Below, piece after piece: positions 6,471-62,040 of a stretch of DNA of 64,000 nt (positions are counted from its first letter, which is position 1; each line of letters starts with the position of its first letter). The stretch lies in the IMG/VR virus record IMGVR_UViG_3300025030_000061, positions 31,052-95,051 of that record; one strand, written 5' to 3'. A program made the translations under genes and the position numbers. Source of the DNA: a virus. The notes under the pieces were generated by a model. That model worked only from the letters and a program-made list of their open reading frames with translations, did no database searches and was not told the origin of the DNA.

Positions 6471-6756
6471 CGGTAAGGAGCAGTGCTCCTGCGGTTTGTG
6501 GTACCCGGCCGGCGGGGCGGCGCTCTGCGCTGCCAACCGGCACAGCGTCAAAGAGGCGCCCTACCCGAATCCGCATCGCCACGTTAATTCTTTGGAGTTG
6601 TCCGTGGAGGTGTTCTGCGTCGAATGCAGCGCCAGGTTGTCGGCCGAGTTCAAGATGGAAGCCCATGGGCGCATCGTCCTCAAGGTTTCCAATCATCTTT
6701 GCCCGGTTGAAGAGCCGGCCGATATTAGCGAATCCCTCCAGGAGGTGGCAGCATGA
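6457..6756 (+). CDS. Cys-rich hypothetical protein
   Basis: GGAGG RBS, CxC and CxxC motifs, coupled to neighbouring genes. Confidence 0.55.
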   Translation: MPRADGKEQCSCGLWYPAGGAALCAANRHSVKEAPYPNPHRHVNSLELSVEVFCVECSARLSAEFKMEAHGRIVLKVSNHLCPVEEPADISESLQEVAA

Positions 6757-8039: not shown

Positions 8040-8047
8040 CTCCCCCT

Positions 8048-8078
8048 GGGAGCGGTGCCGGGCTCCGGTGCCGCTCCC
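8048..8078 (+). terminator. GC-rich hairpin after RDF-like gene
   Basis: GGGAGCGG...CCGCTCCC inverted repeat. No U-tract, so function is uncertain. Confidence 0.4.
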
Positions 8079-8079
8079 A

Positions 8080-8113
8080 TCATTCGGCCTTCGGGTCTTT
8101 CCTCTGGTGTAGG
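8080..8113 (+). promoter_or_regulatory. class A repeated motif
   Basis: TCATTC ggccttcg GGTCTTT cctct GGTGTAGG. Confidence 0.7.
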
Positions 8114-8137
8114 CACTATTTCTTTCGGAGGTTTCAA

Positions 8138-8311
8138 ATGAAAAACGGTATTGATGTTTCTTTGGTAGTCGCGGCGGTTCGTCACATGGATGCGAAGGGC
8201 TCGGAGTTCTCCGATCAGATGGTTGGCGGGACGGTGGCCTTCGATCCCGATCGGGAGCAGATCGGTTTCTTCAACGCTGATGGCGGTCTGGTCGATTCCA
8301 TTTCCTACTAG
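8138..8311 (+). CDS. small hypothetical protein (57 aa)
   Basis: GGAGG RBS before MKNGIDVS. Confidence 0.6.
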   Translation: MKNGIDVSLVVAAVRHMDAKGSEFSDQMVGGTVAFDPDREQIGFFNADGGLVDSISY

Positions 8312-8371
8312 GGGTTGTCTCCCCGAGCCCTCACCTGCTGCCTGGGTGGGGGCCTTTTGCCTGGAGGTTCC

Positions 8372-14308: not shown

Positions 14309-14344
14309 TAAAAAAAGGGCTCAGCCCCTAGGAGCTAAACCCTT
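14309..14344 (-). terminator. intrinsic terminator downstream of the tRNA fragment
   Basis: On the - strand: AAGGGTTTAGC...GCTGAGCCCTTTTTTT. Confidence 0.7.
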
Positions 14345-14355
14345 GTTATCAGTCA

Positions 14356-14408
14356 TGGTGCCGGAGGTCGGAATCGAACCGACACGGGTTGCCCCGCTGG
14401 ATTTTGAG
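14356..14408 (-). mobile_element. attP core: 3' half of tRNA-Leu(CAA), anticodon loop to CCA
   Basis: Reverse complement CTCAAAATCCAGCGGGGCAACCCGTGTCGGTTCGATTCCGACCTCCGGCACCA has the CAA loop, long variable arm, T-arm and CCA. The 5' half is absent. Confidence 0.85.
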
Positions 14409-14603: not shown

Positions 14604-15119
14604 TTACGGCAGCATCGAAGCCGGGATGCTGTTATCTCCCGTGGTTAGCGCGGGTGAGGTGGTGACGGTTTTCGGCACCTCGATGGTCACGCGGTTGCCG
14701 TCTCCTGTGATGGTGCAATTAACGGTGGAACACCCATGGAGCAGTGCAATCGCCAGAAGTGCGGCCACTTTAAACATGCCATTCTCCCGGGCTTTGCCAC
14801 CCCCACAAAGCCATGTGGCCCAAAACCACCTCTTGCTCTGCCAGTAGCGCCCCTCCTCGACCAGTATGTCCTGCAGTACCTGGGAGCACTGCCAATTACT
14901 GAGAGGGGTGCCATCGTCCCACGTGCCATTCCTGCACAGTTCGTCATGCACCCACCAGCTGCGCGACGTGATGTCCATGGCACCGGTCGCGCCGTCGCTT
15001 ATCCGGTTGGCTGGGATGTTGACGGATTTGCCGTACCTGTAGGAGTAGTATTCAAACCCTTTGTTTAACGTGTAGGTGCCGTCGTTGTTGATACTTTGGT
15101 CGATTTCGAAGCTTTTCAT
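14604..15119 (-). CDS. DUF1353-like protein with an in-frame C-terminal lipoprotein-like segment
   Basis: SDGATG...WWVHDELC. Internal MFKVAALLAIALLHGC at 14777 with a GGGAG RBS. Confidence 0.6.
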   Translation of the reverse strand: MKSFEIDQSINNDGTYTLNKGFEYYSYRYGKSVNIPANRISDGATGAMDITSRSWWVHDELCRNGTWDDGTPLSNWQCSQVLQDILVEEGRYWQSKRWFWATWLCGGGKARENGMFKVAALLAIALLHGCSTVNCTITGDGNRVTIEVPKTVTTSPALTTGDNSIPASMLP

Positions 15120-15459: not shown

Positions 15460-15627
15460 TCACCTCCTCACATCAAATCGCATCTCTGCGCCAACATTCC
15501 ACGCCGTTGTCCCCTCGCGGAACAGCTCCGAGGTCTGCCGGCCAACTGAAGCGCGGTAGGTCGTGCCTGAGAGCACCTGAGAGCATGCCGGGAGGGTGCA
15601 GACGACAAGGATCAGCAGGATCCTCAT
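15460..15627 (-). CDS. small lipoprotein (55 aa), possible spanin component
   Basis: MRILLILVVCTLPAC lipobox, coupled to the endolysin stop. Confidence 0.55.
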   Translation of the reverse strand: MRILLILVVCTLPACSQVLSGTTYRASVGRQTSELFREGTTAWNVGAEMRFDVRR

Positions 15628-16250
15628 TTGTGGGCCATCGCTTCATACTCATGCACGCTGCGCGTCACTTCGACTTTCATCCGCCTCGCCCACGTGTCCA
15701 GGAACTGCATCTGTGCCGGGTTGTGGTCTACGATCTGGATGTACCGGCCATGCGTCAAGCCGACTAGATGAACGAAGAGTAGCGTTTGATCTACCTCGTT
15801 CAACCGCTTCACTGTCCCCCTACCGATGTTGCCGTCTACAGCAATGGGCGGTCTCGGCCATCCGGCGTAGTTGATCGATCGCTGTAAGATCCTCGCAGCG
15901 GTCCCTTGGCCCTGGTTGACTGCCCAGCCAAAATAGACGTTGGCGATGATCTGTGAGCGCCACTCGTCGCAGCGGGAAGCGCCCCAGAAATCGTTGCGGT
16001 AGATGAACGCGGCCCGGTCCATGGTGAGGTTGCGGATGTCCTCTCGGGGATAGCTGGATGCGGCGACGCCATACTTTGTCCCCCGGAGCTCGCCATTGCC
16101 AATAGCGCCACCGGTCCAGTTGCCCCGGTCGCCGCGCATGTTCTGGTATCCACCCTCATGGGCAAAGGTCGCCTTGAGTGCCGGCCGAATATCAGCGGCA
16201 TGGGCGGGTACGGCAAACATCATCAGCATCATTAAAATCAAGATACGCAT
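15624..16250 (-). CDS. glycoside hydrolase family 108 endolysin with N-terminal signal peptide
   Basis: HEGGY...DRG...TKYGV and a PG-binding VDGNIG region. Signal MRILILMMLMMFAVPAHA. Confidence 0.9.
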   Translation of the reverse strand: MRILILMMLMMFAVPAHAADIRPALKATFAHEGGYQNMRGDRGNWTGGAIGNGELRGTKYGVAASSYPREDIRNLTMDRAAFIYRNDFWGASRCDEWRSQIIANVYFGWAVNQGQGTAARILQRSINYAGWPRPPIAVDGNIGRGTVKRLNEVDQTLLFVHLVGLTHGRYIQIVDHNPAQMQFLDTWARRMKVEVTRSVHEYEAMAHK

Positions 16251-16268
16251 ACTTCCTCCTCGCTTAGT

Positions 16269-16424
16269 TCATTCCTCAATCCAATCCGACAGGCACCGGC
16301 ACAGGTAGTGGAGGTGCGGCTTGCTCGACTGTGCGGTGTTACACCAGCCGCACCATTGGCCGTCCGGCTCATGGAACACCGGGGTGACCAGCGCTCCGCA
16401 TGTCGGGCATTCCGCAGGTTCCAC
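16269..16424 (-). CDS. small Zn-ribbon protein (51 aa)
   Basis: GTG start after AGGAGG. CPTC...CGWC. Confidence 0.45.
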   Translation of the reverse strand: MEPAECPTCGALVTPVFHEPDGQWCGWCNTAQSSKPHLHYLCRCLSDWIEE

Positions 16425-16433
16425 GATTGCCTC

Positions 16434-17030
16434 CTACCACTCGATCAAAACGCTGCCGGGTTGGCCATCTGTCGCAACTGAAGTAGCGTAACCACCCCCG
16501 CCGATGGTGATTGCAATCGGGTTCGCGACCGTAAAATTCCCCGTCACGGTCCCCTTGATATATCCGCCACGCGCCCCTGGAGCTGCCAATAGCTCATCAT
16601 CAGGCTCTCCGCCGAAATTTCCGGCGCCATCGGTCTGTGTGATTGCAGAGACTGCCCCTGTGTATGATTGACTACCGGCAACAGCCACGGCGTAGGGGTT
16701 ATCAGAATCGCCGCCCGCGCCGCCGTTAGCTGTCATGGACCACCCTGACCTGCTAACTGTGGTATTCGCCCCTAGTGAGCCGTCGTGCTGGCCGAAATTC
16801 TGTCCACCACCGCCGCCCGAACCTTTGACGGTGATCGTGACCGGGATTACGCAGGTACCCATGTTGCCGGATAGACCGGTGGGCCAGTTGCCAGATGCTG
16901 TGATTGATGAGCTGCCGTGCAGCGTCGTTGGGGGGGTGCATTTAAGCGCTGATGTAAACCTCCGCGCTGATGGTCCTGCCCAACAGAGAGAGGGAAGCAG
17001 CAGGAGGATAATAAGGAGTCGTGCCAGCAT
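16434..17030 (-). CDS. glycine-rich tail-fibre-associated protein with signal peptide
   Basis: GSGGGGG, ANGGAGG, GARGGYI, GQPGSVLIEW Gly-rich domain. Signal MLARLLIILLLLPSLCWA. Confidence 0.7.
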   Translation of the reverse strand: MLARLLIILLLLPSLCWAGPSARRFTSALKCTPPTTLHGSSSITASGNWPTGLSGNMGTCVIPVTITVKGSGGGGGQNFGQHDGSLGANTTVSRSGWSMTANGGAGGDSDNPYAVAVAGSQSYTGAVSAITQTDGAGNFGGEPDDELLAAPGARGGYIKGTVTGNFTVANPIAITIGGGGYATSVATDGQPGSVLIEW

Positions 17031-20000
17031 TAATAGTTCCTCCCGCCGTCCGCGCCCATCGTATATGTGCTGGTCGAGTCCGACTTGAACACGTAGATGT
17101 CATATTTGCCGCTAGCGCTGGTTGATGTCGGCGCTGAACCGCCGCTCCATTTGATCGTTCCACCGCCCGCCCATGTGACAGTGTGCGTGCCGCCGTATTT
17201 GACCGTGATCGTGAATGATTTTCCGGCAACGGGCGTCGGCAGAGTGATAGTCACATTTGCATTAGTCGTCAGCTCCTGGTCCATGCCGTTCGCCAAGTCG
17301 ACGGTGAAGGATGACCCTGCCGATGGAGCGTAGGTGGTGTCTTTGAATTGCTGGCCGGTGATCGTAGTGCCAGTAACCGCCCCTGGGGTCGTGCCACCGA
17401 TTGCGCCGGGGGCGGCAAGGTTTGGAATGTCGGTTGTATAGGCCATCGTTTTACGGGTAGGGCCGGTCGTTTGAGTGACGAATAGGTTTGTCCCATCCCA
17501 CTCGACTGCTCCGGCCTCTGCGGCTGTCAGGTTGGTCCCCGCCGTAAACTTAAGTGGAGAGGTGCTGGCCGTGGCGGTACCGGCCTTGAGGTGCAGTGCC
17601 GATGTTGGTGTAGTAATGCCTATACCCACGTTGCCGGTGTCGCCCTTAATGCGAAACCGAGAGGTCATAGACCCGTTGCCGCCGATTGTGCCGAGGTAGA
17701 TGGTCATATCGGTCTGCTGATCAGCGTCCGTGTACGCGGCAGAAGCGTCGGCTTGAATCGAAATCCCATTTTTGAGGCCGGTATCCCCGTAGCCATAACC
17801 CAACAGTGAGAAAACCCGCATGCCGGATGCTAGGGCAAGTGGAGAGGCCGCAGTACCACGACCGTTTTGGACTTGTATGGAGGGAAATCCGCCGTAGCCG
17901 GTCGCACCAGTGCCGTCCCAGTTCCGCACTAGAAGTTTGGGGTATTTGGCGGAAGAGTCCGAGCTATTTACTGCAAGAATCTCGACACTTTGGTTCGTCT
18001 GGTATGTCTGGATGGTGCCTATGTCCGAGACGGTGACGCCACTGGATCTCTGTGCGAGCTTGCCGGTGGTGCTGTCAAACCTTACGATCTCATTGTCCCC
18101 AGCAGATGCCGGCCCAACCATGTCCCCGCTGCCAGAGCCCATCGACTCGATTTTGTCCCTGATGGCATTTTTGGAGGGCGCCGTCGTGGTATCTCCATCC
18201 CAAGATGTGGCGTCATAGGCGGTGTTACTGATGGCGGTTGCTGCGTTTGTCACTGTCTCCCATGTCCCTGGTGTTCCGGCTACGACGCATCGCCACCCGA
18301 GCGCGGAGCCTGCAGTCTGGTTGCTATTGTGGACAAAATCGTTGAGATCCCAGGTAAAACTGGTCGGAGCTGCCGCAGCAAACATGCGGTCCCCTTGAAT
18401 GGTGCATCCCTTCCATGACACACCAGATAGGTAGTTATTGGCGTATTTCACTGCCTGTTCATCTGCATAAAATGGAGATGCGGTCGCAATGGCATCGATA
18501 TCCGTGGAAGCATTGCGCACCAGAGGGATTCCTGCGGTGTCCGCAGTGATCGTGTTGCCGGTGAGCGGCAGGGTGGTCAGTGTTCTCTCGCCGACGATAA
18601 AAATGTTGCCGCTGGTGTCACTGTTCGCCAGGCGCATCGTATTGCCGGAAAACACACCTTTTCCGTTCCTGATCGACGCCAGTCCTACGACCGATGCGCC
18701 AGTGATGGTATTACCAGTGGCTTCCCACTGTTCAAGATTGCTGTGAGCGTCAATAGCTGTGGAAAAGTAAGCGTGCTGCGCTCCGGAAATTGTCAGTTCT
18801 TGCCCGTACTGCGCCGGGTCTTGCCAAAGGATTGAGTTCTTGACCACGTTGTTGTTGCTGATGATGCTGCGATCTGCCCCTAGTGCCACGTCATGTTTGC
18901 AGTTAGTGACGATGGCTCGGTCTATCGTGATGTTTGTCCCTGACGCCGCAATGCCGTACCCCATGCGCCCACCCGACACGCCGATTTTGTTCAGGTAACC
19001 GGTCGAATAGATGTCCTCCAAGACAAGGTTGTTCCCGGTCACGGCGAGACCCGCGGCAGCGTTATCCGCACCGAGAAAGTCGCAGTTCCTGATGGTCACG
19101 TTAGAAGCGTACAGGCTCGCGCTGGTAATCGCTGTAGTGGCCGAACGGCTATCAAAAACCAGATCCTCTATTAATCCGTCATGCATACCGACGAACACGT
19201 CCATGGTCGCGGCGGTGATGGTATTGAGAGGCGGGATGTCCATGGTCGCAGTTGAACCAGACACCGACACTACCTGAGCCATGTGCCCCGCGTAGTAGTT
19301 GTAAAGATACGGCGCAGCGGGAATTAACCGGACCATGTCACCAGCAACGACTGTAATTCCGCCTGGGATGGTGAATGTCAGCGAATCCTTGGTCACAGCA
19401 ATGCTCTGGCCAGTGTTATTGCTCAACAGACCATAAGCGGAGAGCAGCCCGTATGCCGTATTGTTCCCGTAGATACGCGATCCGTAGCCGTGGATCTCCC
19501 CGCCGGTGATCCCTGCGAATGACAGCGTGTTGGTACCGATGTTGTAGGACTGCTCGACTCCGAAATTCACGCTGGTGCCGGCTTTGATCCTGTTAACCAG
19601 GGACTGGATGTTCTGGTAGTCATCAGATCCATCACCAAGCGCCTGCCACTCGATGTCTATTTCGTGGACCCTATCGCCCCACAGGATTGATCCTGAGATA
19701 AACCCTGAGAGGCAGCGCTGTTCTGGGAAATCTGTAGGACCATTGATAGTGAGGATGCCGCCGTTTCTCTGGATTAACGCGCCGGGTTGTAACCTCAGCG
19801 TTACGTTCTCTGGGATCGTTATATTGCTGGCCATGACCCATGTCCCAGTCGTGAGCACCAGAGTTTTGACCGTGGCGCCGATAGCAGTGATGGCCGCGTT
19901 AATGGTTGCCGAGGTGAGCGTTCCGCCGTTGTAGTCAATGGCGTACACCTCGTTATCCACATCTCCCGGCTGCAGCGCCGTCTCAGCCAACGCCCCCTGC

Positions 20001-21214
20001 GCCGCCGTTGCGTAATCGGTGGAGTCGGTAGCGGCTGCGGTGCCGAGGGTGGGCTTGCCGGTAAGATCGGAATACGCGCCGGAAGTGGCGACGGTAGGGA
20101 GATCGCCAGGCTGAACAGAAGTAGTCCCGAGTGCCGCGCCCGCGGCCTGCCCATCTATTGCATCCTTGACAGCCTTGACCGCCGCCGAGTTCGCCGCCGT
20201 GGTCGTTGAGGTGGAGGTGGTGGATGAGGAAAGCTCAGTCTCTTTGATGATGTTGGCATCGGCGGGTTCGTAGGTTCCGGAGTGGTTATGGCCGGTCGCC
20301 GCTTTAGCCTCCATCTCCGATGAAGTTACGCCGCCCTTCTTTACTCCTGGTGCTGGCAGCCGGTCGCCGTCGAACGTTCCAGAAGTGATTGTGCTCGCCG
20401 CCTGGTTATGAATTGTGGCTGCTTTACCGTCCAGGGCTGTCTGGGTTGCCGTGCTAATAGGTTTGCTAGCGTCGCTGGTGTTCTCTGCGTTGCCGAGCCC
20501 GACCTGGCCCTTGGTGACTGAGTGAGGGTTGCTGGTGTTCCCGGTGTGGGTAGTGAGGCCGGTTTGCACGGCTGCAGCTGATCCGGATGGGTCCGCTCCG
20601 ACCTGAACTGCTGTCGGGATCGGGATGGTGACCTCGGTTGCATCGGCCGCAGCGTTGTCGGCCGCCGTGACGCCGGCGCCTTTGAAGTTGAGCTTGGCTC
20701 TTGAGGTGAGGCTGCCGCCTTCATCCTGGATGGTGTGCTTGGTGCCTGCGGAGAGCCCGTCCAGTTTGGTCTTGTCGGTACCGGACATAAGGCCGGCCGC
20801 CGACTGTGTCGCCGCCGGGATCCCGTCGGATCCCTCGCCTGCATGGCTGGATCCGTGCGAGGTCGGGGTCCTCGCGTTGGCGTTGCGCGTGTCCGAGTCA
20901 GTGACGTATTTGTTGGTGGTGCTGGGGGTGCCTGATGTCCCGGTCATAGCACCCTTCTCTGGCGTCGTCGGGATGTTTAGATGGTTGTAATTGCTCTCAT
21001 GCGATATGACAGCTGCCGTCCCTTGCCCGGTGATCTCGACTCTCCCGGTACCGGTGCCGATAAACAGACGCTTGCTGTCGGTGGTCCACCTGGGTCGTGC
21101 GATGGGCACTGCTGCTGGCAGATTGGCCTCGTTGCCGTTGGGTAGTTCGATGTCGGCAGCGATTGCGACAGCTGCAGTTAAAAATAGAATGAGCAGGAAA
21201 AGGTATCGTTTCAT
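17030..21214 (-). CDS. long tail fibre/tailspike with beta-helix domain and N-terminal signal peptide
   Basis: Mtd-N-like WTTDSKRLFIGTG, fibre repeats (HTGNTSNPHSVTKGQVGLGN, VATSGAYSDL), pectate-lyase-like helix, GNVGIG repeat. Signal MKRYLFLLILFLTAAVAIA. Confidence 0.8.
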   Translation of the reverse strand: MKRYLFLLILFLTAAVAIAADIELPNGNEANLPAAVPIARPRWTTDSKRLFIGTGTGRVEITGQGTAAVISHESNYNHLNIPTTPEKGAMTGTSGTPSTTNKYVTDSDTRNANARTPTSHGSSHAGEGSDGIPAATQSAAGLMSGTDKTKLDGLSAGTKHTIQDEGGSLTSRAKLNFKGAGVTAADNAAADATEVTIPIPTAVQVGADPSGSAAAVQTGLTTHTGNTSNPHSVTKGQVGLGNAENTSDASKPISTATQTALDGKAATIHNQAASTITSGTFDGDRLPAPGVKKGGVTSSEMEAKAATGHNHSGTYEPADANIIKETELSSSTTSTSTTTAANSAAVKAVKDAIDGQAAGAALGTTSVQPGDLPTVATSGAYSDLTGKPTLGTAAATDSTDYATAAQGALAETALQPGDVDNEVYAIDYNGGTLTSATINAAITAIGATVKTLVLTTGTWVMASNITIPENVTLRLQPGALIQRNGGILTINGPTDFPEQRCLSGFISGSILWGDRVHEIDIEWQALGDGSDDYQNIQSLVNRIKAGTSVNFGVEQSYNIGTNTLSFAGITGGEIHGYGSRIYGNNTAYGLLSAYGLLSNNTGQSIAVTKDSLTFTIPGGITVVAGDMVRLIPAAPYLYNYYAGHMAQVVSVSGSTATMDIPPLNTITAATMDVFVGMHDGLIEDLVFDSRSATTAITSASLYASNVTIRNCDFLGADNAAAGLAVTGNNLVLEDIYSTGYLNKIGVSGGRMGYGIAASGTNITIDRAIVTNCKHDVALGADRSIISNNNVVKNSILWQDPAQYGQELTISGAQHAYFSTAIDAHSNLEQWEATGNTITGASVVGLASIRNGKGVFSGNTMRLANSDTSGNIFIVGERTLTTLPLTGNTITADTAGIPLVRNASTDIDAIATASPFYADEQAVKYANNYLSGVSWKGCTIQGDRMFAAAAPTSFTWDLNDFVHNSNQTAGSALGWRCVVAGTPGTWETVTNAATAISNTAYDATSWDGDTTTAPSKNAIRDKIESMGSGSGDMVGPASAGDNEIVRFDSTTGKLAQRSSGVTVSDIGTIQTYQTNQSVEILAVNSSDSSAKYPKLLVRNWDGTGATGYGGFPSIQVQNGRGTAASPLALASGMRVFSLLGYGYGDTGLKNGISIQADASAAYTDADQQTDMTIYLGTIGGNGSMTSRFRIKGDTGNVGIGITTPTSALHLKAGTATASTSPLKFTAGTNLTAAEAGAVEWDGTNLFVTQTTGPTRKTMAYTTDIPNLAAPGAIGGTTPGAVTGTTITGQQFKDTTYAPSAGSSFTVDLANGMDQELTTNANVTITLPTPVAGKSFTITVKYGGTHTVTWAGGGTIKWSGGSAPTSTSASGKYDIYVFKSDSTSTYTMGADGGRNY

Positions 21215-21216
21215 GA

Positions 21217-22110
21217 CTAGAAATTTCCTCCACCAATCACGTCTGGGAACGTGATCAGAATTATGGTCGTGTCGTTCAGGGCGTCGTCCTGAAGCGAAAC
21301 GGCGAAGAGGTTACCCTCTATTTCGAAGTCGAACTTGAGCTTGCTCCGCTGTGGCATGGCGTTGCCGACTGGATTGATAATCATGTGCCCAGAGCTTTGA
21401 TCATTGCCGGGCCATGCACTGCCATTCCACCGCGGCAGTTCCTCTGCCTCGCTGATTTTGCCAAGGGCGGCCGAGTTGGCGTGGGTGTGCAGGCGTCCGT
21501 CATTGTCGCCTACTACCAGGGGATCGGCTGGGTTCTGAGCTGCGGTGGCCAGCCGGACTATCCCGTAAAGAACATCGGTGGCGGAGATCGCGCCGCCCGC
21601 CACCGCTATATCTTGGATGGTGGCGATCGGATTCCCTGCGCTGGGGCTGTGTGCTGCGTCCAGGGCTGCATTCTGCGCCTCAGTCAGGTGCTTGCTGTTG
21701 TCCTGGACGTGCAGTGCTAAGGCCGAGGTTTGCGCTGGCGTGAGTTGTGCGCCAGAGACGGCGAAATCGGACCATTTGAGCGGCTGATCCGACTCGATGA
21801 TTGGCGCCACAAACGGGCGGGCACCGGCTACGTTGAGCAGGGTGCAGCGATAGAACACCTGACGGTCGGCCCGGGAGGTGGGCCAGAGATCGATCTTGTA
21901 TTCCCCGACCTTGAGTTCCTCGGTGTCCTCGGTGGCCGTGTAGACGTAGAGCGGGATTGGGATGTAGCGCTCGTGATCCGTCGCGTCGACCGCATCAGTG
22001 GGGATGCCCCCCAGGAGGGAGAGCACGAATTCTATTCTTATCCCCCCCTGGGGCTCTCCGTTTGGTCCTCGTAAAGGCTGGCCGATATTGTTCAGTTCTC
22101 GTTTTAGCAT
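21217..22110 (-). CDS. tail fibre-related protein (no signal peptide)
   Basis: ATDVLYGIVRLAT, HTHANSAAL and PQRSKLKF fibre motifs shared with the 1394-aa gene. Confidence 0.65.
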   Translation of the reverse strand: MLKRELNNIGQPLRGPNGEPQGGIRIEFVLSLLGGIPTDAVDATDHERYIPIPLYVYTATEDTEELKVGEYKIDLWPTSRADRQVFYRCTLLNVAGARPFVAPIIESDQPLKWSDFAVSGAQLTPAQTSALALHVQDNSKHLTEAQNAALDAAHSPSAGNPIATIQDIAVAGGAISATDVLYGIVRLATAAQNPADPLVVGDNDGRLHTHANSAALGKISEAEELPRWNGSAWPGNDQSSGHMIINPVGNAMPQRSKLKFDFEIEGNLFAVSLQDDALNDTTIILITFPDVIGGGNF

Positions 22111-22131
22111 TTCTGCTCCTGGCTCATGTTT

Positions 22132-22145
22132 TGGTATGCGCTACA
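22132..22145 (-). promoter_or_regulatory. operator box TGTAGCGCATACCA
   Basis: Exact match to the box at 5232, in an intergenic gap. Confidence 0.6.
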
Positions 22146-22151
22146 CTCAGG

Positions 22152-22481
22152 TCACAGAAATTCGTCCAACTTGTCGGCGGGCACCTGAACGTGAATGGCA
22201 ATAATCCGGAGCAGCTTCATATATCTGAGGGATTCATGCTGGACGGCGCAGACTGTAGCCTTGGTCGCCGCCCGACATGCCGTGCAATCTTCTTTCTCGG
22301 TCTCATGCTTGGTTATGCAATCCTCCTTGAGGGTCTTATGTTTTGCCGCGCAGTCTCTTTTTGTGGCGTACTCGGAGCCCTTGATCTTGCGCCAGAGGTC
22401 TCCGGCCATGGGACCGAGCATGGATCCTACGACGAGCGAAATGACTCCTGTGATTATGGCGTTGTCGTCGATTGCGGGCAT
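22152..22481 (-). CDS. single-TM membrane protein, holin candidate
   Basis: N-terminal TM segment AIITGVISLVVGSMLG followed by a charged Cys-containing helix. Confidence 0.5.
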   Translation of the reverse strand: MPAIDDNAIITGVISLVVGSMLGPMAGDLWRKIKGSEYATKRDCAAKHKTLKEDCITKHETEKEDCTACRAATKATVCAVQHESLRYMKLLRIIAIHVQVPADKLDEFL

Positions 22482-22558
22482 GGTCCGGTTTACTCCTGTA
22501 GTGGTGGCTGAATGTTGGTGTAGTTACTGTTTTTTGTGAATCAACTGTGCAGCGGTTT

Positions 22559-24697
22559 TTATTGTACGACCCTTACATTGTAGGCGCTGGCAGTGGGTGT
22601 CAGGGCAATGGCTCCGCAAACCTTGACTGTCACCGTGTCTGTGGCCGACACGTGCGCCGACCAGTACGCCCCGTCGCCTGGGTAGGTGACGGGTGAAGCG
22701 CTAGCGGTCATGCCAGTAGCGGCACCCGTTACGGTCAGCGCGCCACTGGTGCAAGCACCCGCAGCAAGTGCCCCGCCGCCGATACTGCCGGTGGTGCCGG
22801 TCAGGGTGGCCCCCGTGACGTATCCGTTGGTGAGCGTCGCCGCAGTCCCGAGTTTGACGCGCCCGCCGATTTGATTGATAGTTGTGTTGGCCACGCTGAC
22901 CGAGTCCACAATGCGTATCTCGTAGGTCCCACCCCCCAGCACTTCAAACTTATTGCCGAAGATGTCTGTGTCGGTGGTGAGGTCCATATATATTGCGTTA
23001 GTTACATTCTGCAACTCAAAGCGGTTGTTCTTAATTCTGGTCCCGCTGACTATCAGGTGGTTCGGGTGTGAACCGGTCGATGGGTATCCGCTCAGTCGGA
23101 TCATGTAGGTAGCGGTGTCGCTGCTGCGCTTGATGAAGTAGTTGTTGACGAAATCGGAGTTCTTAGAGTTGTAGGCCAAAACTCCGCCTTCCTCCACTAT
23201 GTTCTCGGATACGAGGTTGTTGCCAGCGTTATATATCTCCAGATTGTACTTTGTATTAGAGGTGCCCCGCATGATCCAGACCACGGAGCCGTCGGTGACG
23301 GATTGGCCTATCACCTTGGCCCCGCCCGCTTCTCCGTCCGTGGCGATACTGGGGGTGGACCCTGCACTGGTCCCGGCAGTGGTGCATTCCCACACAGTTG
23401 TTCCCGAGTCCCATTTGACCAAGTCTCCCGCCGAATACTCCGTGGAGTTTGCCCTGGTGGCTGAGGCAGGCGTGTGGTACAGGTGGTTGTTTGCGACGAT
23501 TGCGTCCTGTTTGACGGCGATATCGTTCAAGCCTGTTGCATCCCATTCTCCTTGGGTCGGCGTGGGGTTGGTCCCCTCGTAGTATCCTTCAGGCGCGTCC
23601 CAGTACTGAGCGATGAACACGTTGTTCACGCCGTTGTCGTAGCAGTCGTTACCCGTGATGGCTATCTTGGTGCCGCCGAAACCCAAGTTAGTTTCGCCAG
23701 CGTAGATGCCGTAGTAGTTTTTGAAACAGTGATTTCCTTTGATGATCACATTGGACGATGCCCGCAGTCCTATTCCTGCATCATGCTTGTTCTCGTAGAA
23801 CCAGTTATTCGTGACGGTCACGCCTGACACTTCCCCAAGGTAAAGTCCCTTTTTCCCCGCATCCGTCCCGGTGTTGCCGTCAAACACGTTGCGTTTGCCG
23901 AGGGTGGGCACGCCCATGCTGTTTGCGGTCACCCGAGTAACATAATTGCGCCGGATCATGCAGTCGTCGCCGGTGACGCTTATCCCGTAGTTAGCATTTT
24001 TGGACCAGTCGAACACGCCACTCCATCCGGCGGTTTCGTAGCCCCAACTCTGGTTGTATCGGTTGCCGTCCACGTAGCAATCTTCGATGAGCATCCTATC
24101 CCCGGATGCTTGGATACCGGTAAATGAAGTGTCGTTGCCCGCTACCGCATAATCCTTGAACTTTATCCGTAGGCCCTTGAGAGTGATGTCGTCTCGGTAC
24201 GCGTCGACAACCGCATTTATGATGTAGAGCCTGTCTGTGCCCTTTAGGGTCCCGCCTGCGGCCACAGCCTTGATTGCCTTGTTAATCTCCACTTGGTCGC
24301 TGACACCGTCGGCCCCCCACATGTCTGGCGTTGCCTGGCTTAAACCCTCTATCCTGCCCGTGCCAGCAAATATCCGGTAGTCTCCTGTCGTTTCAACAGT
24401 GCCGACCTTGAACACGGTTGTGTTGCCGAGGCTGCCGCCCTTCGCTATTTTGAGCGCACGGTCTGTCGGCCAGGCACCACCCGGCAGGGTTGCGCTGGAG
24501 ATGTTGGACTGCACTGCGGTAAGCGCGGAGGTTACCACTATTGTTTTGCCGGCGGCGCTCGGTGCGACCGCCACTTCGGAAAGTGTTTTTTTAACGGTGT
24601 AGGTTCCTCCGGGCTCCATAACCAGTATCGCCGCAGAAGATTCGCCACAGGCCGCCAGCATGATGCTCAGAAGTGCAATATAGATCAGTTGTCTCAT
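22559..24697 (-). CDS. tailspike-like beta-helix protein with lipoprotein signal peptide
   Basis: MRQLIYIALLSIMLAAC lipobox. WGADGVSDQVEINKAI lid and right-handed beta-helix repeats. Confidence 0.78.
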   Translation of the reverse strand: MRQLIYIALLSIMLAACGESSAAILVMEPGGTYTVKKTLSEVAVAPSAAGKTIVVTSALTAVQSNISSATLPGGAWPTDRALKIAKGGSLGNTTVFKVGTVETTGDYRIFAGTGRIEGLSQATPDMWGADGVSDQVEINKAIKAVAAGGTLKGTDRLYIINAVVDAYRDDITLKGLRIKFKDYAVAGNDTSFTGIQASGDRMLIEDCYVDGNRYNQSWGYETAGWSGVFDWSKNANYGISVTGDDCMIRRNYVTRVTANSMGVPTLGKRNVFDGNTGTDAGKKGLYLGEVSGVTVTNNWFYENKHDAGIGLRASSNVIIKGNHCFKNYYGIYAGETNLGFGGTKIAITGNDCYDNGVNNVFIAQYWDAPEGYYEGTNPTPTQGEWDATGLNDIAVKQDAIVANNHLYHTPASATRANSTEYSAGDLVKWDSGTTVWECTTAGTSAGSTPSIATDGEAGGAKVIGQSVTDGSVVWIMRGTSNTKYNLEIYNAGNNLVSENIVEEGGVLAYNSKNSDFVNNYFIKRSSDTATYMIRLSGYPSTGSHPNHLIVSGTRIKNNRFELQNVTNAIYMDLTTDTDIFGNKFEVLGGGTYEIRIVDSVSVANTTINQIGGRVKLGTAATLTNGYVTGATLTGTTGSIGGGALAAGACTSGALTVTGAATGMTASASPVTYPGDGAYWSAHVSATDTVTVKVCGAIALTPTASAYNVRVVQ

Positions 24698-24731
24698 GGC
24701 TTTTTCAGTCTCCTTGTTCATCCGAAGTGTT

Positions 24732-25625
24732 TTATTCCTGGAACCAGTTGTTGCCGTTCTTTTTTAACTGGATCGTCTCGTCCTGTCCTGAAAGCGGCCA
24801 GGACTCGAGACGCATCACCGTGTCGCCTTCCTGGGGGATAAGGTTGATCAAATTTGCTGTGGCGTCGATCTTGGTGATCCTGACGGTGCCGTCGGTCGGC
24901 ATTGTGTAGTCAATGTCTCCGGCTTCAGCGTCGGCAAAGACCTTGACGTTGTGCTCGGTCTCGGCAAAGGATGCGCTGATATTGCGGGTGATCTCGCCGG
25001 TGAGTTTGAGTAGCAGACTGCGGTTGTCCTGAACCATGCCGGCGGTGATGGTGTTGTCTCCTTCCAGCCGGTTCAGTGTCGCTAGCCGGTAGCGCCAGTG
25101 GTATGCTTCCAGCTCATCCAGGCCATCGGCAGGCATGGCGACGCCTTCGGACACCTTGATGGCCCAGAAGAGCCGGAGCCTGCACGATGTCCTAGCGCCG
25201 ATGACTGGATCGATAATGGTCGGGTCCGCTACACCGTTCACCTCGGCGTACCAGGTGTCGAGGTAGACGATGTCGGTCCGGTCGGCTACGGGGGTGGACA
25301 GCGCCAACTGCGTCTCGGGCTGGCCCGTGAAGGTGGTGTTTGCGGCGAGGTATTGTATCCAGCCTTGGACGTGGATGTTGCCGGCCAGCACGGAGAAGTC
25401 GTTGACCGCTCCCGACCCCACGATCTGGAAACCGTCGTCTGGGGAGCCATCGGCAAGAAAGGCCATCAGCATGCGCCGGAAGCGCTGTACCAGCATCTCC
25501 TGGGAGGCATTGATTTCGTCGTCGAGCCACGGCCGCCCCTGTTCCTTGAGGACCAGGATGTCGTTCTTAGCGTCGTCGTAGGAGAAGCGGGAGTAGTTCC
25601 CGATCCAGTTGAGTCCTCTGTACAT
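24732..25625 (-). CDS. baseplate-proximal tail fibre protein (DUF6519-like N-terminus)
   Basis: GNYSRFSY...QGRPWLDDEINA...RTDIVYLDTW...DP. Confidence 0.65.
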   Translation of the reverse strand: MYRGLNWIGNYSRFSYDDAKNDILVLKEQGRPWLDDEINASQEMLVQRFRRMLMAFLADGSPDDGFQIVGSGAVNDFSVLAGNIHVQGWIQYLAANTTFTGQPETQLALSTPVADRTDIVYLDTWYAEVNGVADPTIIDPVIGARTSCRLRLFWAIKVSEGVAMPADGLDELEAYHWRYRLATLNRLEGDNTITAGMVQDNRSLLLKLTGEITRNISASFAETEHNVKVFADAEAGDIDYTMPTDGTVRITKIDATANLINLIPQEGDTVMRLESWPLSGQDETIQLKKNGNNWFQE

Positions 25626-25634
25626 TGTCCCTCC

Positions 25635-26570
25635 CTATATGGCTATCTCGGTCCAACCGGTGGACTTCGGGCCTGCCACGTAGCCCCTGCTGTTCAGCAT
25701 CCCGGCTGGGTCGTTGGCGATCAGCAGCTCGTCAGGCGCGAAGTACGCAGCGCGCTTGCCGGCCGCCTTGTACCTGGTGATGATGTTGACGATGGCCGCC
25801 TTGTCTCGATCATTCAAGTTGTTGATGTTCCCGCTGTGGACGTAGACGCCAATCCAGCCATTTCTGACGTCGATAGTGCCGGTGTCCAGGATGGTGGATA
25901 CCGACTCGGTGTCGTTGGATAGCCCGCTGAAGCTGTTGGAATAGAGGCAGCCGTTGGGGATGTCGCCCATATCGCGCACATCCACGAAATGGTCCACAGC
26001 CTCCATGATCAGCTTCATTAGCGCCTTGTTGTTGACCTTGAGTGTCAGTACTTCGGCCCTGGCGCGCTGCAGATATTGGCTGTCACTTTCTCCCTGGATG
26101 CGCGGGACAGTGAAGAAGTCGGCCATCCAGTAGTCGAGCCAGTCGTCCTGGGCTGTCTGCGCGTACAACTGGCGCTCCGCTGCCCGGCGCTGTGACTCCT
26201 GTCCTTCGAGAGCTCCAGCGTAGACCTGGAACTCGCAGTAAGAGGCGCTGCCTGGGTAGTAGAGTTTGGGATCGCGGGCCAGGTCGAGGGTTTCGGAGAG
26301 AATTCCCTTGGCAAGCTTGGCGCCGTGACTGGCAGATGCCATGGTCGCGTCGTAACCGGGGACGGACTGGATAGTGGCGACCAGCTGCGCCACGGTCATT
26401 TCGGCGAAAGGGATAACTGTGGTGTCGAGGCCAGCAGCGAAGAGGGTAAGTCGGTAATCCTTGACGGTGGCGGTGGCAGGGAAGCTCTCGACGGCGATAT
26501 TCACAACGGGGGTGCGCTGCGGGTTCTTGTCGAATATCCTATGCAGCCGTGATAGGAGGCGAGTCAGCAT
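25635..26570 (-). CDS. baseplate wedge protein (gpI/gp7-like)
   Basis: WLDYW...VPRIQGESDSQY...R and C-terminal YKAAG. Follows baseplate J. Confidence 0.7.
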   Translation of the reverse strand: MLTRLLSRLHRIFDKNPQRTPVVNIAVESFPATATVKDYRLTLFAAGLDTTVIPFAEMTVAQLVATIQSVPGYDATMASASHGAKLAKGILSETLDLARDPKLYYPGSASYCEFQVYAGALEGQESQRRAAERQLYAQTAQDDWLDYWMADFFTVPRIQGESDSQYLQRARAEVLTLKVNNKALMKLIMEAVDHFVDVRDMGDIPNGCLYSNSFSGLSNDTESVSTILDTGTIDVRNGWIGVYVHSGNINNLNDRDKAAIVNIITRYKAAGKRAAYFAPDELLIANDPAGMLNSRGYVAGPKSTGWTEIAI

Positions 26571-27691
26571 CAGGAGAACTCCACCGTCATGACGCCAGGG
26601 ATCAGCACCTGCCCATCGGCAAGCTCCGCGTCGGGGTAGGCTGTGATGTTGAGGTCGTCAACTCCAGGAAGTCCCTTGACGCGCTTGATGGCCTCATTGA
26701 GCACGAAGTTCTGTCCTACGGGGATGCTCTGGATGTAGTAGGTGAGAGTGTCGCTGACCAGTATCTCCAGAGTGGGTTGATCGGCGCCGGGGAAGGCCAA
26801 TATCTCGATAGTGACGTTGCCGATCACCACGGTGGCGGAAACTACACTGGCGACGTCGCCGGCAGCCTTGTAGCCTGGCACCGGCGTTCCTTCCGCGTCG
26901 AGGTATCCGTCAATAATGTCCTGTGCTCGCGCTACCAGATCGGCGCTGGCTACGCCGCTGCCGTTCCAAACGTAGACGGTAAAGTGTGAATCGGCGGTAA
27001 TCGGTGGTTGCAATACCTTTGCGTCGACCACTCGTTCAACCACATTGCCGTAGATGTTGGTGATCTCCGCCGTGGTGGCGCCGTAGGCGATAGCCGCCGC
27101 CGTGCCCCTGGATATGGACGCGATGAAATTACGGAAGCGAGATTGCCGGCTGGCCTCGGTTTCAGGGTTAGTGCCGTTGTTGATTGCTGCGGCGTTGGTG
27201 ACCGTCACGATCTGGTTTACCGGCGTCTTGATCACAGTGAGAGTGGCAGCATTGATGTTGCCGGCAGTTCCTGGCGTGAGCGATGTCACCGGTGCGTCTA
27301 TCTGGCTCTGCCCCACGGCAAGCGTTACGGATGCGCTGGTGGCGTAGACTTTTTCCATGATGCCGCTGGCGGCGCCAGTGGCGACCTTGGTTCCTGCTGG
27401 GATGATCACGTTGGCGGTAACCGGCGTGGCGCTGGAGAAAGTGACATAGCCGTTGGCTGTGGTGGCGGGGAGCAACACGAAGCCGAAAGCGGAATAAACT
27501 GCAACAGGTATGGCCTTCTTGGTGGTGACGTAGAACTGATAGTCCTGCGCCTCCATCTCGACAGCGAAGGCCTCGAACTTGGTGCGCGTGACCCCGCCAA
27601 TCAGGAGATCCGTGATGGTACTCTGGCTGCCGGCAAACCATGCCACCATGTTTGCCAGTCTGGTCTCCATTTTAATGATCGAGAATCCCAC
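26570..27691 (-). CDS. baseplate J/gp47 family protein
   Basis: IPAGTKV, PGTAGNI, GTNPETEASRQSRF, SRGTAAAI, YKAAG. Confidence 0.9.
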   Translation of the reverse strand: MGFSIIKMETRLANMVAWFAGSQSTITDLLIGGVTRTKFEAFAVEMEAQDYQFYVTTKKAIPVAVYSAFGFVLLPATTANGYVTFSSATPVTANVIIPAGTKVATGAASGIMEKVYATSASVTLAVGQSQIDAPVTSLTPGTAGNINAATLTVIKTPVNQIVTVTNAAAINNGTNPETEASRQSRFRNFIASISRGTAAAIAYGATTAEITNIYGNVVERVVDAKVLQPPITADSHFTVYVWNGSGVASADLVARAQDIIDGYLDAEGTPVPGYKAAGDVASVVSATVVIGNVTIEILAFPGADQPTLEILVSDTLTYYIQSIPVGQNFVLNEAIKRVKGLPGVDDLNITAYPDAELADGQVLIPGVMTVEFS

Positions 27692-27756: not shown

Positions 27757-29730
27757 CTATCCGATCAAAAGCCTCATCCTGGTGGCGGAGGTCTGCCCAA
27801 CCAGCACCACGTCGGCTAGGATCGTGATGGCGGTGTTGTCCACATTGAAGTCAAGACGCTCCACGGCTGCCACTCGCGGGTCCTGAACAATGGTCAGTTC
27901 TGCCTCTAGTAGCGCACGCTCGTGCCACATGGGGGTGCTGACCCGTCCTACGTAGAGCGGCAGCAGTGATCCGTACTGAGGGTGTCCCAGTGCTGCAAGT
28001 TCCCCGCGCATAGTGGTGAGCCGGTGTTGTAGCTGCATCTCCAGGTTAGTGACTCCCGACACGTAAAGGTCGTTGATGGCTGCCTCGGGTTTGCCGCTTA
28101 CACCTATAGATTCGTCGGTACCCAACAGCTGCGCGTAGAAGTCTGGGTCGTCTGCTGTGATGGCGCTCACGCCGGTTCGGGTTCCAGGTATCCTGATCTG
28201 GTCTCCTGGGAAAATTACGTTTCGGCGTGTGGCATGGGACGAAACGGTGGCTGCGGTGCTGTAGGAGTTTTGCAGCGGGGTGCTGATGGTTATGATGCCG
28301 TTCCGAGCTGCAATAATCGGTGCGTACTCGTGGGTCTCGCCCTCCTGGAGCAGCAGGATCTGACCGTGGTCGGGGTTGATGTCGGTGCATAGGTTAATGG
28401 CGTAGGCACTGGCTGGAACAGTGATCCGCCCTTTAAGCAGGGCCGGGCTGAAGGCGTCAAACCACTCCTTGGCGATGAATGGGTATTCCAGACCGTTCAG
28501 CATAGCGATCTGTTTCCATTGCGAGGCGTCGCCCAGTATCCTGCTGGCGAGCGATTCCATGGTGTCGCCGTGGTTGACAGGCTCTACCTGGGAGGCGATC
28601 AGTTGCTCGGATTCGAGAAGTTCACTAAAAATGGTGGTTTCAGGGTTATCCATGGCAACGAACGCGTCTTGCCCGACGTTCTCTGGTGTCGGGCCTGCGA
28701 CGATCTCTTTCGGGTCCGAGTCTGCGGGGAGGGTGCTAGGCCCGGACGTTGTGGTGGTGGCCGATACCCTGAACTGATCCTTGTGCAGGCTCAGCATGAG
28801 CAGCGCACGCTTGGTGCTGCGCAGGTCCTGGATGAACTCGTGCGGGAGGTCCTTAATGAAGATTACGGTATTCAAGATACTGTCGGTGGTCGCTATTGCC
28901 TCATTGACTAGGGCGAAAGGAGCATTGATGGTGTCGCTGATTCCCTGCCGGAAGCCAGCGACCGACTGTCGAATGGTCTGCATGGTGCCTCTCAGCTGAT
29001 CGACGCGGTTGCTTACGTCGTTCATGGCATTGTAGGCCCAAGTGTAACCTTTGAGCAGCTTCCCCCATATGGAGAGGTCGTCTGCTGGCACAGCGATGTT
29101 AGTTAATCCCAGATATTCGGCCAGGGCGTCTTCGTCGATCGGCGCATCGATCCGCTGCAGCACCGTCATCTGAATGTCGTACATATAGAGGAAACGGCGC
29201 TGGATATTGCGCTGGAACTCGAAGCGATCGAGCTGCACCACGAAGAAGTCGCGGTCGGTGTAGTTGTAGAAGCTGAGTCTCGGCGGGTTTTTTGGGTCGA
29301 TCTTCCCTTGAAACACCTCGTCGACCTTTTCGCCGCGCAGCGTGTAGGTGCCAAAGCGCTGATAGAAAAGCATGAAGGTCTGCTCTAATTCAATGAACAT
29401 CTCCCAGGCGTCCTTAACTTTGCTGCCGAGCGTCATGCCGTGGCCGCCCACCTGGTTGCCGAGGTAGCCAAAAGTACCCTGCATGGATATTTTGGGGAGT
29501 CCCAGGCCGATATTGTCCTGGAAAGCTCCGCCGATTGTCTGCGTGGCGTTGGCGCGGGTCGGGTAGGCGATCCGGTACATCTCGGGGTTGATCGGGAGCA
29601 CGTACTCGCTACTGGGCTGGTAGCGGTTGGCCTGGGCACCGGCGGTCTGGATGCCAGTGGTCTCAAACATAAAGGGGAGACGCTGGTCCCGTGTGCGGAC
29701 GCCAGTCTGGATGTTTTTGTTCCACTGCAT
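27757..29730 (-). CDS. fused tube-initiator / LysM / gp25-like baseplate protein
   Basis: LPINPE...ISMQGTFG N-terminus, LysM GDTMESLASRILGDASQWKQIAMLNGL, gp25-like HPQYGS...QDPRV. Confidence 0.75.
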   Translation of the reverse strand: MQWNKNIQTGVRTRDQRLPFMFETTGIQTAGAQANRYQPSSEYVLPINPEMYRIAYPTRANATQTIGGAFQDNIGLGLPKISMQGTFGYLGNQVGGHGMTLGSKVKDAWEMFIELEQTFMLFYQRFGTYTLRGEKVDEVFQGKIDPKNPPRLSFYNYTDRDFFVVQLDRFEFQRNIQRRFLYMYDIQMTVLQRIDAPIDEDALAEYLGLTNIAVPADDLSIWGKLLKGYTWAYNAMNDVSNRVDQLRGTMQTIRQSVAGFRQGISDTINAPFALVNEAIATTDSILNTVIFIKDLPHEFIQDLRSTKRALLMLSLHKDQFRVSATTTTSGPSTLPADSDPKEIVAGPTPENVGQDAFVAMDNPETTIFSELLESEQLIASQVEPVNHGDTMESLASRILGDASQWKQIAMLNGLEYPFIAKEWFDAFSPALLKGRITVPASAYAINLCTDINPDHGQILLLQEGETHEYAPIIAARNGIITISTPLQNSYSTAATVSSHATRRNVIFPGDQIRIPGTRTGVSAITADDPDFYAQLLGTDESIGVSGKPEAAINDLYVSGVTNLEMQLQHRLTTMRGELAALGHPQYGSLLPLYVGRVSTPMWHERALLEAELTIVQDPRVAAVERLDFNVDNTAITILADVVLVGQTSATRMRLLIG

Positions 29731-62033: not shown

Positions 62034-62040
62034 TATTGGT

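Follow-up and report, generated by a model that had tools for sequence, protein, structure and literature searches.

Three tail-fibre or tailspike-like late proteins of an uncultivated groundwater phage, predicted to infect Geobacter-type bacteria, were found to carry secretion or lipoprotein signals where a virion-attachment domain normally sits. Relatives in other uncultivated phages showed the same, indicating that these proteins are probably exported from the infected cell instead of joining tails in the cytoplasm. The window analyzed was a 64,000-nucleotide stretch of the viral record, and the region 15699-26000 was assembled identically in four runs of one groundwater study. The original prediction, that fibre and tailspike genes here begin with Sec and lipoprotein signal peptides, was confirmed. 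Its interpretation, that such proteins are exported and then attach to virions after lysis, act from the cell envelope or function in lysogeny, was only partly supported, as export was well supported by sequence features while the data did not discriminate among the three fates.

Predicted export signals in the late operon

All of the genes described here lie on the minus strand. P0001 (17030-21214), a fibre-like protein of 1394 aa, starts with MKRYLFLLILFLTAAVAIA|AD, in which a charged n-region (MKR), a hydrophobic h-region (YLFLLILFLTAAV) and a c-region ending AIA|AD form a canonical Sec signal at 21158-21214. P0002 (16434-17030), its Gly-rich partner of 198 aa, starts with MLARLLIILLLLPSLCWA|GP, with the organization MLAR, LLIILLLLPSL and CWA|GP, and its Sec signal spans 16977-17030. 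P0003 (22559-24721), the 720-aa beta-helix protein, has a possible ATG at 24721 that lacks an RBS, whereas the RBS AAGGAGA favours the ATG at 24697, giving MRQLIYIALLSIMLAA|C with the lipobox L-A-A-C (C25). Its signal peptide spans 24650-24697 and the lipobox Cys codon 24647-24649. P0004 (21217-22110), a short fibre or stub of 297 aa, has no hydrophobic N-terminus, as originally described.

Each start that includes a signal has a GGAGG-type RBS and is tightly coupled to the upstream gene (TAG-TC-ATG, TAATG). The next in-frame start candidates, codons 36 and 90 in P0001 and codon 57 in P0002, lack an RBS. In a whole-genome scan of N-terminal hydrophobicity, the only late-operon genes scoring as signal-like were these three and the endolysin at 15624-16250 (MRILILMMLMMFAVPAHA|AD). 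The endolysin comprises GH108 (7.9e-17) and PG_binding_3 domains preceded by an N-terminal signal or SAR-like segment (AHA|AD), and its homologue in L015 (viral contexts are designated here by L numbers) has the same arrangement. A 55-aa lipoprotein ORF (MRILLILVVCTLPAC...) was found separately at 15460-15627, overlapping the endolysin stop codon; it gave no family hit and is a spanin-like candidate. For comparison, only 5 of the 120 generic fibre-repeat homologues of P0001 listed have a signal-like N-terminus.

Two details of the original prediction proved weaker than claimed. The similarity in fibre motifs between P0004 and P0001 was not significant by BLAST (E > 1), and the idea that the two are paralogous over those motifs was not supported. 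The beta-helix claimed for P0001 was not detected by Pfam, and only an ESM-Atlas lead (score 0.92, to pectate-lyase-like viral clusters) supported it. P0001 otherwise gave Phage_fiber_2 and PHROG fibre hits and consists of a fibre-repeat shaft to about residue 420, a probable pectate-lyase-like body at about 430-1000 and a C-terminal fibre-tip region, with no match in the PDB.

P0003 carries a conserved N-module at about 24317-24646, followed by a right-handed beta-helix body at 22562-24316 (Pfam Beta_helix, 6.9e-12) predicted to be polysaccharide-active. The family profile matched secreted alginate epimerases (AlgE4, 2e-27; AlgE6), polysaccharide lyases, the Sf6 tailspike (5e-16) and, weakly, the WceF structure 6tgf (E 7e-4). 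The N-module was modelled with confidence (pLDDT 90) but had no clear structural relative: Foldseek against PDB gave E > 1, the best VIA Z was 3.8, and the best BFVD match was E 0.1, to a Peduovirinae tail fibre. The mature part of P0002 contains two invariant Cys. P0002 had no Pfam, NCBIfam or PHROG hit; its AF2 model was unusable (pLDDT 39), and an Atlas lead went to viral Gly-rich clusters, with PF21722 in 20% of one. Between P0003 and P0004 lies P0143 (22152-22481), a 109-aa protein with one N-terminal transmembrane-like segment. It had no Pfam or PHROG hit and was not homologous to the small transmembrane proteins at the same position in other loci, which are not a conserved family.

Conservation of the signals in relatives

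All three members of the Gly-rich P0002 family have a signal. P0126, which is 90% identical to P0001 in the body, has a different N-terminal region but still a hydrophobic leader. Among 153 representatives of the beta-helix (N-module) family, 112 have a signal, 31 have none and 2 have a fibre-type N-terminus instead. The signals interchange between Sec-type (90) and lipobox-type (about 22 by regular expression, of which 19 looked clear by eye), the latter including P0133 (LSAC), P0137 and P0151 (LCGC) and P0149 (LAAC). L015 and L016 keep the lipobox LCGC while the h-region diverges. The absence of the N-terminal segment from homologues had been named beforehand as grounds for rejecting the prediction; this was not the case for most relatives, as 112 of 153 keep a signal, but it was true of the minority of 31 signal-less "MAILVFSPNGT" forms, which start exactly at the N-module and show that the two states interconvert.

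In a related viral contig, the same enzyme body carries a virion-anchor domain in place of the signal. This homologue, P0125, is 64% identical, and its N-terminus is homologous to the N-terminal ~110 aa of P0004 (E 8e-11), which is a virion-anchor domain. The signals of P0003 and P0001 occupy the place where relatives carry an anchor.

Linkage to a putative adaptor and operon context

Upstream of P0003 lies a 297-aa putative baseplate-attached "adaptor" (24732-25625), with a weak DUF4815/phrog_877 N-terminus. Its residues 222-297 (24735-24962) form a ~70-aa C-terminal domain shared with genes upstream of signal-bearing tailspikes in other phages, and this domain is 42% identical to that of the stub in L018 (E 3e-13). 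In the six closest viral contexts, of six examined, the gene bearing the signal and N-module lies 0-2 genes downstream of a short protein ending in this domain. In the two contexts tested by PHROG, L018 and L017, that protein was anchor-only, being T7-gp17-like and P2-gpH-like, respectively. The adaptor profile had no PDB match, the gene at 24732-25625 had no close relative in IMG/VR, and a scan with the C-terminal domain returned no further loci.

The N-module is conserved at 45-70% identity while the bodies are only 20-38% identical; between L015 and L016, the adaptor is 87%, the N-module 70% and the body 30% identical. The adaptor C-domain and the N-module were not homologous to each other (hhalign probability 0.1), and the identities of the C-domains did not clearly track those of the N-modules (Spearman 0.25, p 0.36). 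Contexts for the signal-less subfamily were not found: a search of viral contigs with P0159 and a search of metagenome contigs with the query A3 gave nothing, and viral contigs searched with A3 returned only a signal-bearing relative, L023.

The exported-type genes sit in the receptor-binding-protein slot, directly after baseplate genes, and in most of the viral contexts examined (this window, L015, L016, L019 and L020/L021) they lie next to the lysis genes. The only convincing intrinsic terminator downstream of the operon is at 14315-14344, and neither an internal terminator nor more promoter-like sites than expected by chance were found, so these genes are read with the late and lysis genes. 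In L006, the P0001/P0002-type cassette lies outside the fibre module, in a moron-like position with no adaptor upstream.

Host prediction and distribution

The predicted host is Geobacteraceae. The attP core at 14356-14408, which is the 3' part of tRNA-Leu(CAA), had exact matches only in Geobacteraceae genomes, and contigs diverge at 14356 and 14408. A weak integrase-family hit and a repressor-like HTH protein further suggested a temperate phage. The N-module was not found in the 401 genomes searched from the host's phylum, P0002, which 18 contigs bear, was not found with the query used in 87 Geobacteraceae genomes, and a scan of genome contigs with P0001 found no relative. No cultured or deposited phage has the N-module, and P0001 matches only short fibre repeats there. 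No RNA holder was listed among public runs. Literature searches found no description of signal-bearing phage fibres or spikes in the library searched.

Proposed role of the probably exported proteins

Our favoured explanation, which we hold tentatively, is that P0003, P0001 and P0002 are real late-expressed phage proteins that the host Sec pathway takes out of the cytoplasm, P0003 then being lipid-anchored. In this view, they derive from virion receptor-binding proteins by replacement of the virion-anchor domain with a signal peptide, and P0003, and probably P0001, carry polysaccharide-active beta-helix bodies. They would most likely act on the infected cell's own envelope or matrix glycans from the periplasm or outer membrane, alongside the Sec-exported endolysin, clearing capsule, EPS or receptor glycans so that progeny escape and are not trapped on debris. 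The virion itself would carry only the short signal-less proteins (P0004 and the 24732-25625 protein). Our analysis showed the signal features, their conservation, the exchange of anchor for signal, the homology of the enzyme fold and the operon context; that the proteins are actually expressed and exported, that adaptor and N-module bind, and the substrate and purpose are inferred from sequence alone.

The conservation of the signals despite turnover of their sequence, the anchor-bearing homologue P0125, the body's matches to secreted enzymes, the proximity to lysis genes with a signal-bearing endolysin, and the position of the L006 cassette outside the fibre module all favour this role. A tether of six residues between the lipid-anchored Cys and the N-module also fits a membrane-fixed enzyme better than a virion part. 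However, the receptor-binding-protein slot, the linked upstream protein (the signature of adaptor-plus-tailspike systems in which the two bind), the N-module conserved as expected of an attachment domain, and the signal-less members weigh against it, and P0001 has a long fibre shaft that a free enzyme would not obviously need.

An alternative, possible but unlikely, is that the proteins are exported, fold in the periplasm and, after holin or spanin action mixes the compartments or in the lysate, dock through the N-module onto the C-terminal domain of virion-bound adaptors, so that the receptor-binding apparatus would be completed outside the cytoplasm. Linkage to the adaptor despite different anchor types, the high conservation of the N-module and co-transcription with structural genes support this. 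The signal-less subfamily has a near-invariant N-module joined to variable bodies, as in receptor-binding-protein cassette systems, and the invariant Cys of P0002 could need periplasmic oxidation. In contrast, no precedent for tailed phages was found in the library searched, lipidated forms would stay in membranes with their anchor only about six residues from the proposed docking domain, and docking after dilution in a lysate would be inefficient. The pairing can also reflect joint transfer of neighbouring genes, and the L006 cassette has no adaptor upstream. The furthest-reaching form of this reading, equally unlikely, is that a class of tailed phages leaves assembly carrying only anchor-only adaptors and captures its Sec-exported, envelope-folded or lipidated tailspikes and fibres through a dedicated N-module/C-domain pair once the inner membrane is breached; the same proteins may strip the infected cell's glycans beforehand.

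Two further readings are improbable. The proteins could be lysogen-expressed morons that modify, mask or trim surface glycans for superinfection exclusion or serve as adhesins, comparable to T5 Llp, Cor, and lambda Lom and Bor. The phage looks temperate, the module lies next to attP, the L006 cassette is in a moron-like position, and Lom is a signal-bearing protein within lambda's fibre region (PMC12309495). However, the tight coupling to late genes without internal terminator or above-chance promoters argues against a role in lysogeny only, the same architecture occurs in podovirus-like contigs next to lysis genes, and the N-module and P0002 were not found in the host-group genomes searched. 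Finally, the hydrophobic N-termini could be a transient membrane tether, a trimerisation or docking helix, or be bypassed in ordinary cytoplasmically assembled fibres and spikes, as the gene position, fibre-like architecture and signal-less members might suggest, but the segments have full n/h/c organization with small residues at -3 and -1 or a lipobox Cys, these properties are conserved while the sequences are not, conservation begins exactly at the predicted cleavage site (AILV...), Sec-type and lipobox-type interchange, and alternative starts lack an RBS.

Comparison with known systems

The closest precedent is WceF of Pantoea stewartii (and AmsF of Erwinia), an exported trimeric tailspike-like EPS glycanase (PMC7949094), in which a tailspike-type right-handed beta-helix enzyme is preceded by an export signal and acts on the producer's own exopolysaccharide. 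WceF is a chromosomal gene in an EPS biosynthesis cluster, uses a Tat signal and keeps a P22-like head-binding domain, whereas the genes described here lie in a phage late operon between baseplate and lysis genes, have Sec or lipoprotein signals with no twin-arginine motif, and have a different N-module.

In the adaptor ("anchor-branch") systems of phages such as K1-5/SP6, Klebsiella KP32-type, CBA120 and G7C, a short anchor-only protein is followed by anchorless tailspikes that share a conserved N-terminal segment and have exchangeable enzymatic bodies. The gene arrangement here matches this, but the parts of those systems are cytoplasmic and not known to carry signal peptides, whereas most tailspikes of this family carry Sec or lipobox signals. 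Sec-exported and SAR endolysins are likewise phage late proteins placed outside the cytoplasmic membrane before lysis by the host Sec system, but are peptidoglycan hydrolases rather than large fibre or tailspike-like glycan enzymes. T5 Llp, Cor, and lambda Lom and Bor are signal- or lipobox-bearing proteins acting at the host envelope, some encoded among tail-fibre genes, and Llp protects progeny from receptor in debris; they are small, unrelated in sequence and not derived from receptor-binding proteins or enzymes. The order of P0001 and P0002 resembles the T2/S16-type gp37-gp38 pair, in which a long fibre gene is followed by a small Gly-rich protein gene, but there is no detectable homology and both proteins here have signals.

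Textbook tailed-phage assembly is entirely cytoplasmic, and receptor-binding proteins are assumed to lack export signals. Here, a whole family of tailspike-like proteins, 213 cluster representatives in a library of 1.84 billion proteins, mostly carries Sec or lipoprotein signals, with members in the receptor-binding slot of myovirus-like and podovirus-like genomes. If they act from the envelope, phages have a previously unrecognised late function, export-dependent destruction of matrix or receptor glycans working alongside the lysis system; if they join virions after export, that would be a new assembly route. Either way, the finding affects how receptor-binding proteins and depolymerases are predicted from metagenomes and how host range is inferred, and it points to enzymes that may act on Geobacter-type extracellular polysaccharides.

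Genome organization and predicted host

The 95,051-bp IMG/VR virus record, of which bases 31052-95051 form the window, was rated complete. A myovirus-type late operon was found on the minus strand, comprising the portal (60348-62093), a prohead protease, the major capsid protein (41622-43064), the sheath (35189-36931), the baseplate hub (27757-29730), and Baseplate_J (26570-27691), followed by two further baseplate-region genes, the fiber and tailspike-like genes of interest, and a GH108 + PG_binding_3 endolysin (15624-16250). A 53-nt 3' fragment of tRNA-Leu(CAA) at 14356-14408 (the attP core) exactly matched only genomes of Citrifermentans, Geomonas, and Geobacter. Contigs of the source runs, which were groundwater metagenomes of a single study, diverged exactly at both borders of this fragment, as would be expected if host tRNA or integrated forms co-occurred. 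The phage is therefore probably temperate, with a diderm Geobacteraceae host. A repressor-like HTH protein and a candidate integrase, supported by only a weak Pfam hit, lay upstream of the window, the latter about 19 kb from the attP core.

N-terminal signals of the late proteins

All four ORFs of the original prediction were present as described, and its observation of signal sequences on the fiber and tailspike-like proteins held. The 1394-aa fiber-like protein P0001 began MKRYLFLLILFLTAAVAIA-AD, its 198-aa Gly-rich partner P0002 began MLARLLIILLLLPSLCWA-GP, and the beta-helix protein P0003 began, from the RBS-preceded ATG at 24697, MRQLIYIALLSIMLAA-C, a textbook lipobox (hyphens mark the predicted cleavage sites). 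The 297-aa protein P0004 had no hydrophobic N-terminus. Each signal-including start followed a GGAGG-type RBS and was tightly coupled to the previous gene, while the next possible in-frame starts lay 35-89 codons downstream and had no RBS. In a scan of the whole genome, the only late-operon genes with such N-termini were these three and the endolysin (MRILILMMLMMFAVPAHA-AD). As a control, only 5 of the 120 generic fiber-repeat homologs of P0001 had a signal-like N-terminus. The 10-kb stretch assembled identically in four runs. Two details of the original prediction were weaker than stated: the motif similarity between P0004 and P0001 was not significant, and Pfam did not detect the proposed beta-helix in P0001, for which only an ESM-Atlas lead pointed to pectate-lyase-like viral proteins.

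The signal of the endolysin (AHA-AD) appeared cleavable, and its mature start, ADIRPALKATFAHEGGYQ, was shared with the endolysin of the viral contig L015. A 55-aa lipoprotein ORF (15460-15627, minus strand) overlapped the endolysin stop codon (ATGA) and may be a spanin component, whereas no clear holin was identified. A 171-aa ORF at 14604-15119 (minus strand) contained an internal Met followed by a lipobox (MFKVAALLAIALLHGC) near residue 115, which may represent an embedded or separately started outer-membrane spanin-like lipoprotein; homologous ORFs followed the lysis genes in L015 (12997-13350). Between P0002 and the endolysin lay a 51-aa Cys-rich (zinc-ribbon-like) ORF (16269-16424, minus strand) with no family match. 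A 109-aa protein with one N-terminal TM-like segment and a Cys-rich charged tail (22152-22481, minus strand) was encoded between P0003 and P0004, and non-homologous small TM proteins occupied similar positions in the viral contigs L015, L016, and L022.

Conservation of the predicted export signals

The signals were conserved in relatives. The P0002 family consisted of only three clusters, all of which began with signals of different sequence, while the mature parts were 47-71% identical and shared two invariant Cys; structure prediction yielded no usable fold for P0002. The closest relative of P0001 was P0126, on contig L006, which was 90% identical over residues 391-1351. Its N-terminal region was unrelated (collagen repeats), yet it again began with a hydrophobic, lipobox-like leader, and it was followed by a signal-bearing P0002 homolog. 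This cassette (L006 9089-13608) lay between the head-tail connector genes and the sheath gene of a myovirus-like contig, with the collagen-repeat stalk placed directly after the leader. The same contig, denoted L017 at its other locus, also carried a lipoprotein beta-helix gene (P0133) in the true fiber slot.

Of 12 P0003 homologs found by word search, 10 had signals. An exhaustive HMMER search with the ~110 residues that follow the lipobox Cys (the N-module) returned 213 cluster representatives, of which 153 were classified. Sec-type signals were found in 90 and lipobox signals in about 22, while 31 had no signal and started "MAILV..." exactly where the others would be cleaved. Six had long N-terminal extensions, two of which were of fiber type by eye (P0259 and P0273), three had short non-hydrophobic extensions, and one gave no HMM hit. 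Conservation began at the predicted cleavage site, and the leaders kept their physical properties but not their sequence, a pattern expected of functional export signals and not of a docking helix. A second kind of post-signal N-terminal module was indicated by a short motif (LP..QGG..KK....QL), common at the extreme N-terminus of ordinary phage fibers, which appeared directly after the signal peptides of P0126, P0132, and the contig L023 genes at 6293-7066 and 7833-9068.

Signals in place of a virion anchor

On the viral contigs L003-L005, the same enzyme body (64-71% identity) was fused to a ~170-aa N-terminal region in place of a signal. The first ~110 residues of that domain were homologous to the N-terminus of P0004 (E 8e-11). 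P0004 therefore carries a virion anchor, while P0003 and P0001 carry signals where an anchor would be. The body of the P0003 family matched secreted mannuronan C5-epimerases, polysaccharide lyases, the Sf6 tailspike, and, weakly, WceF, with all matches starting after the N-module.

Recurring gene arrangement

Contexts of family members were examined in eight viral contigs, which included podovirus-like genomes (L015, L016, and L018) and myovirus-like genomes (L017, which is the same contig as L006; L020/L021; and L023). In most of them (this window, L015, L016, L019, and L020/L021), the signal-bearing beta-helix gene lay at the end of the tail module beside the lysis genes. The endolysin of L015 was a homolog of that of this phage and carried the same kind of leader. 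After a 191-aa stub, the myovirus-like L021 (8084-14795) encoded two small signal-bearing proteins and three consecutive large ones (731, 322, and 695 aa, two of them beta-helix), before the endolysin, holin-like, and spanin-like genes. L018, L019, and L023 also encoded signal-bearing proteins with fiber repeats.

In the two loci tested by PHROG, the gene just upstream was anchor-only: the 256-aa protein of L017 matched only the first ~155-180 residues of mostly 570-1060-aa fiber families, and the 245-aa protein of L018 matched only the first ~125 residues of mostly 650-1080-aa tail or spike families. In six contexts (this window and L015-L019), these upstream proteins, here termed adaptors, differed at the N-terminus but shared a ~70-aa C-terminal domain; in this domain the 24732-25625 protein of the window was 42% identical to the L018 stub (E 3e-13). 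That domain was not homologous to the N-module. Across these loci, the N-module was 45-70% identical while the bodies were 20-38% identical, and for L015 against L016 the identities were 87% for the adaptor, 70% for the N-module, and 30% for the body. The signal-less subfamily showed a near-invariant N-module joined to very different bodies. All of this is the signature of adaptor-plus-tailspike cassette systems, with an export signal added. The N-module was predicted to fold confidently (pLDDT 90) but had no clear solved relative.

Comparison with known systems and proposed role

The nearest known systems include WceF/AmsF, which are bacterial, Tat-exported, and located in EPS clusters, and adaptor-based receptor-binding systems, which are fully cytoplasmic. 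Others are Sec-exported and SAR endolysins and envelope morons such as Llp, Cor, Lom, and Bor. None combines a phage late-operon tailspike or fiber with a Sec or lipoprotein signal. No deposited phage genome carried the N-module, and full-text literature searches returned no description of the phenomenon. The arrangement would become categorically new if the proteins were shown to join the virion outside the cytoplasm.

The interpretation in the original prediction, that receptor-binding proteins or depolymerases are exported and then attach to virions or act from the envelope, was partly supported. The signals, their conservation, and their occurrence in place of an anchor were shown by the sequences, all from uncultivated viruses; export itself is the best-supported step and is likely, although inferred from sequence features alone, and what the proteins do afterwards is likewise inferred. 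We tentatively favor the view, held with less than even confidence, that they are envelope-located glycan-active proteins working with the lysis system. They are predicted from the operon structure to be co-transcribed with the lysis genes, they lie beside a Sec-type endolysin, and many are predicted to be lipid-anchored with only about six residues of tether. In addition, the P0001/P0002-type cassette in L006 lies outside the fiber module, and a bacterial precedent exists in WceF.

The main alternative, possible but doubtful, is that the exported proteins are captured by the virion-bound adaptors once the inner membrane is breached; the adaptor and N-module linkage and the anchor-only stubs argue for it, while lipidation and the topology problem argue against it. 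A lysogeny-only role is unlikely; it fits the temperate lifestyle and the position next to attP, but not the operon structure or the podovirus-like contexts. A non-export role for the leaders is equally unlikely, being hard to square with their n/h/c organization and the interchange of Sec-type and lipobox-type forms.

In the favored view, the purpose of these proteins would be to clear capsule, EPS, or receptor glycans so that progeny are released and not re-adsorbed.
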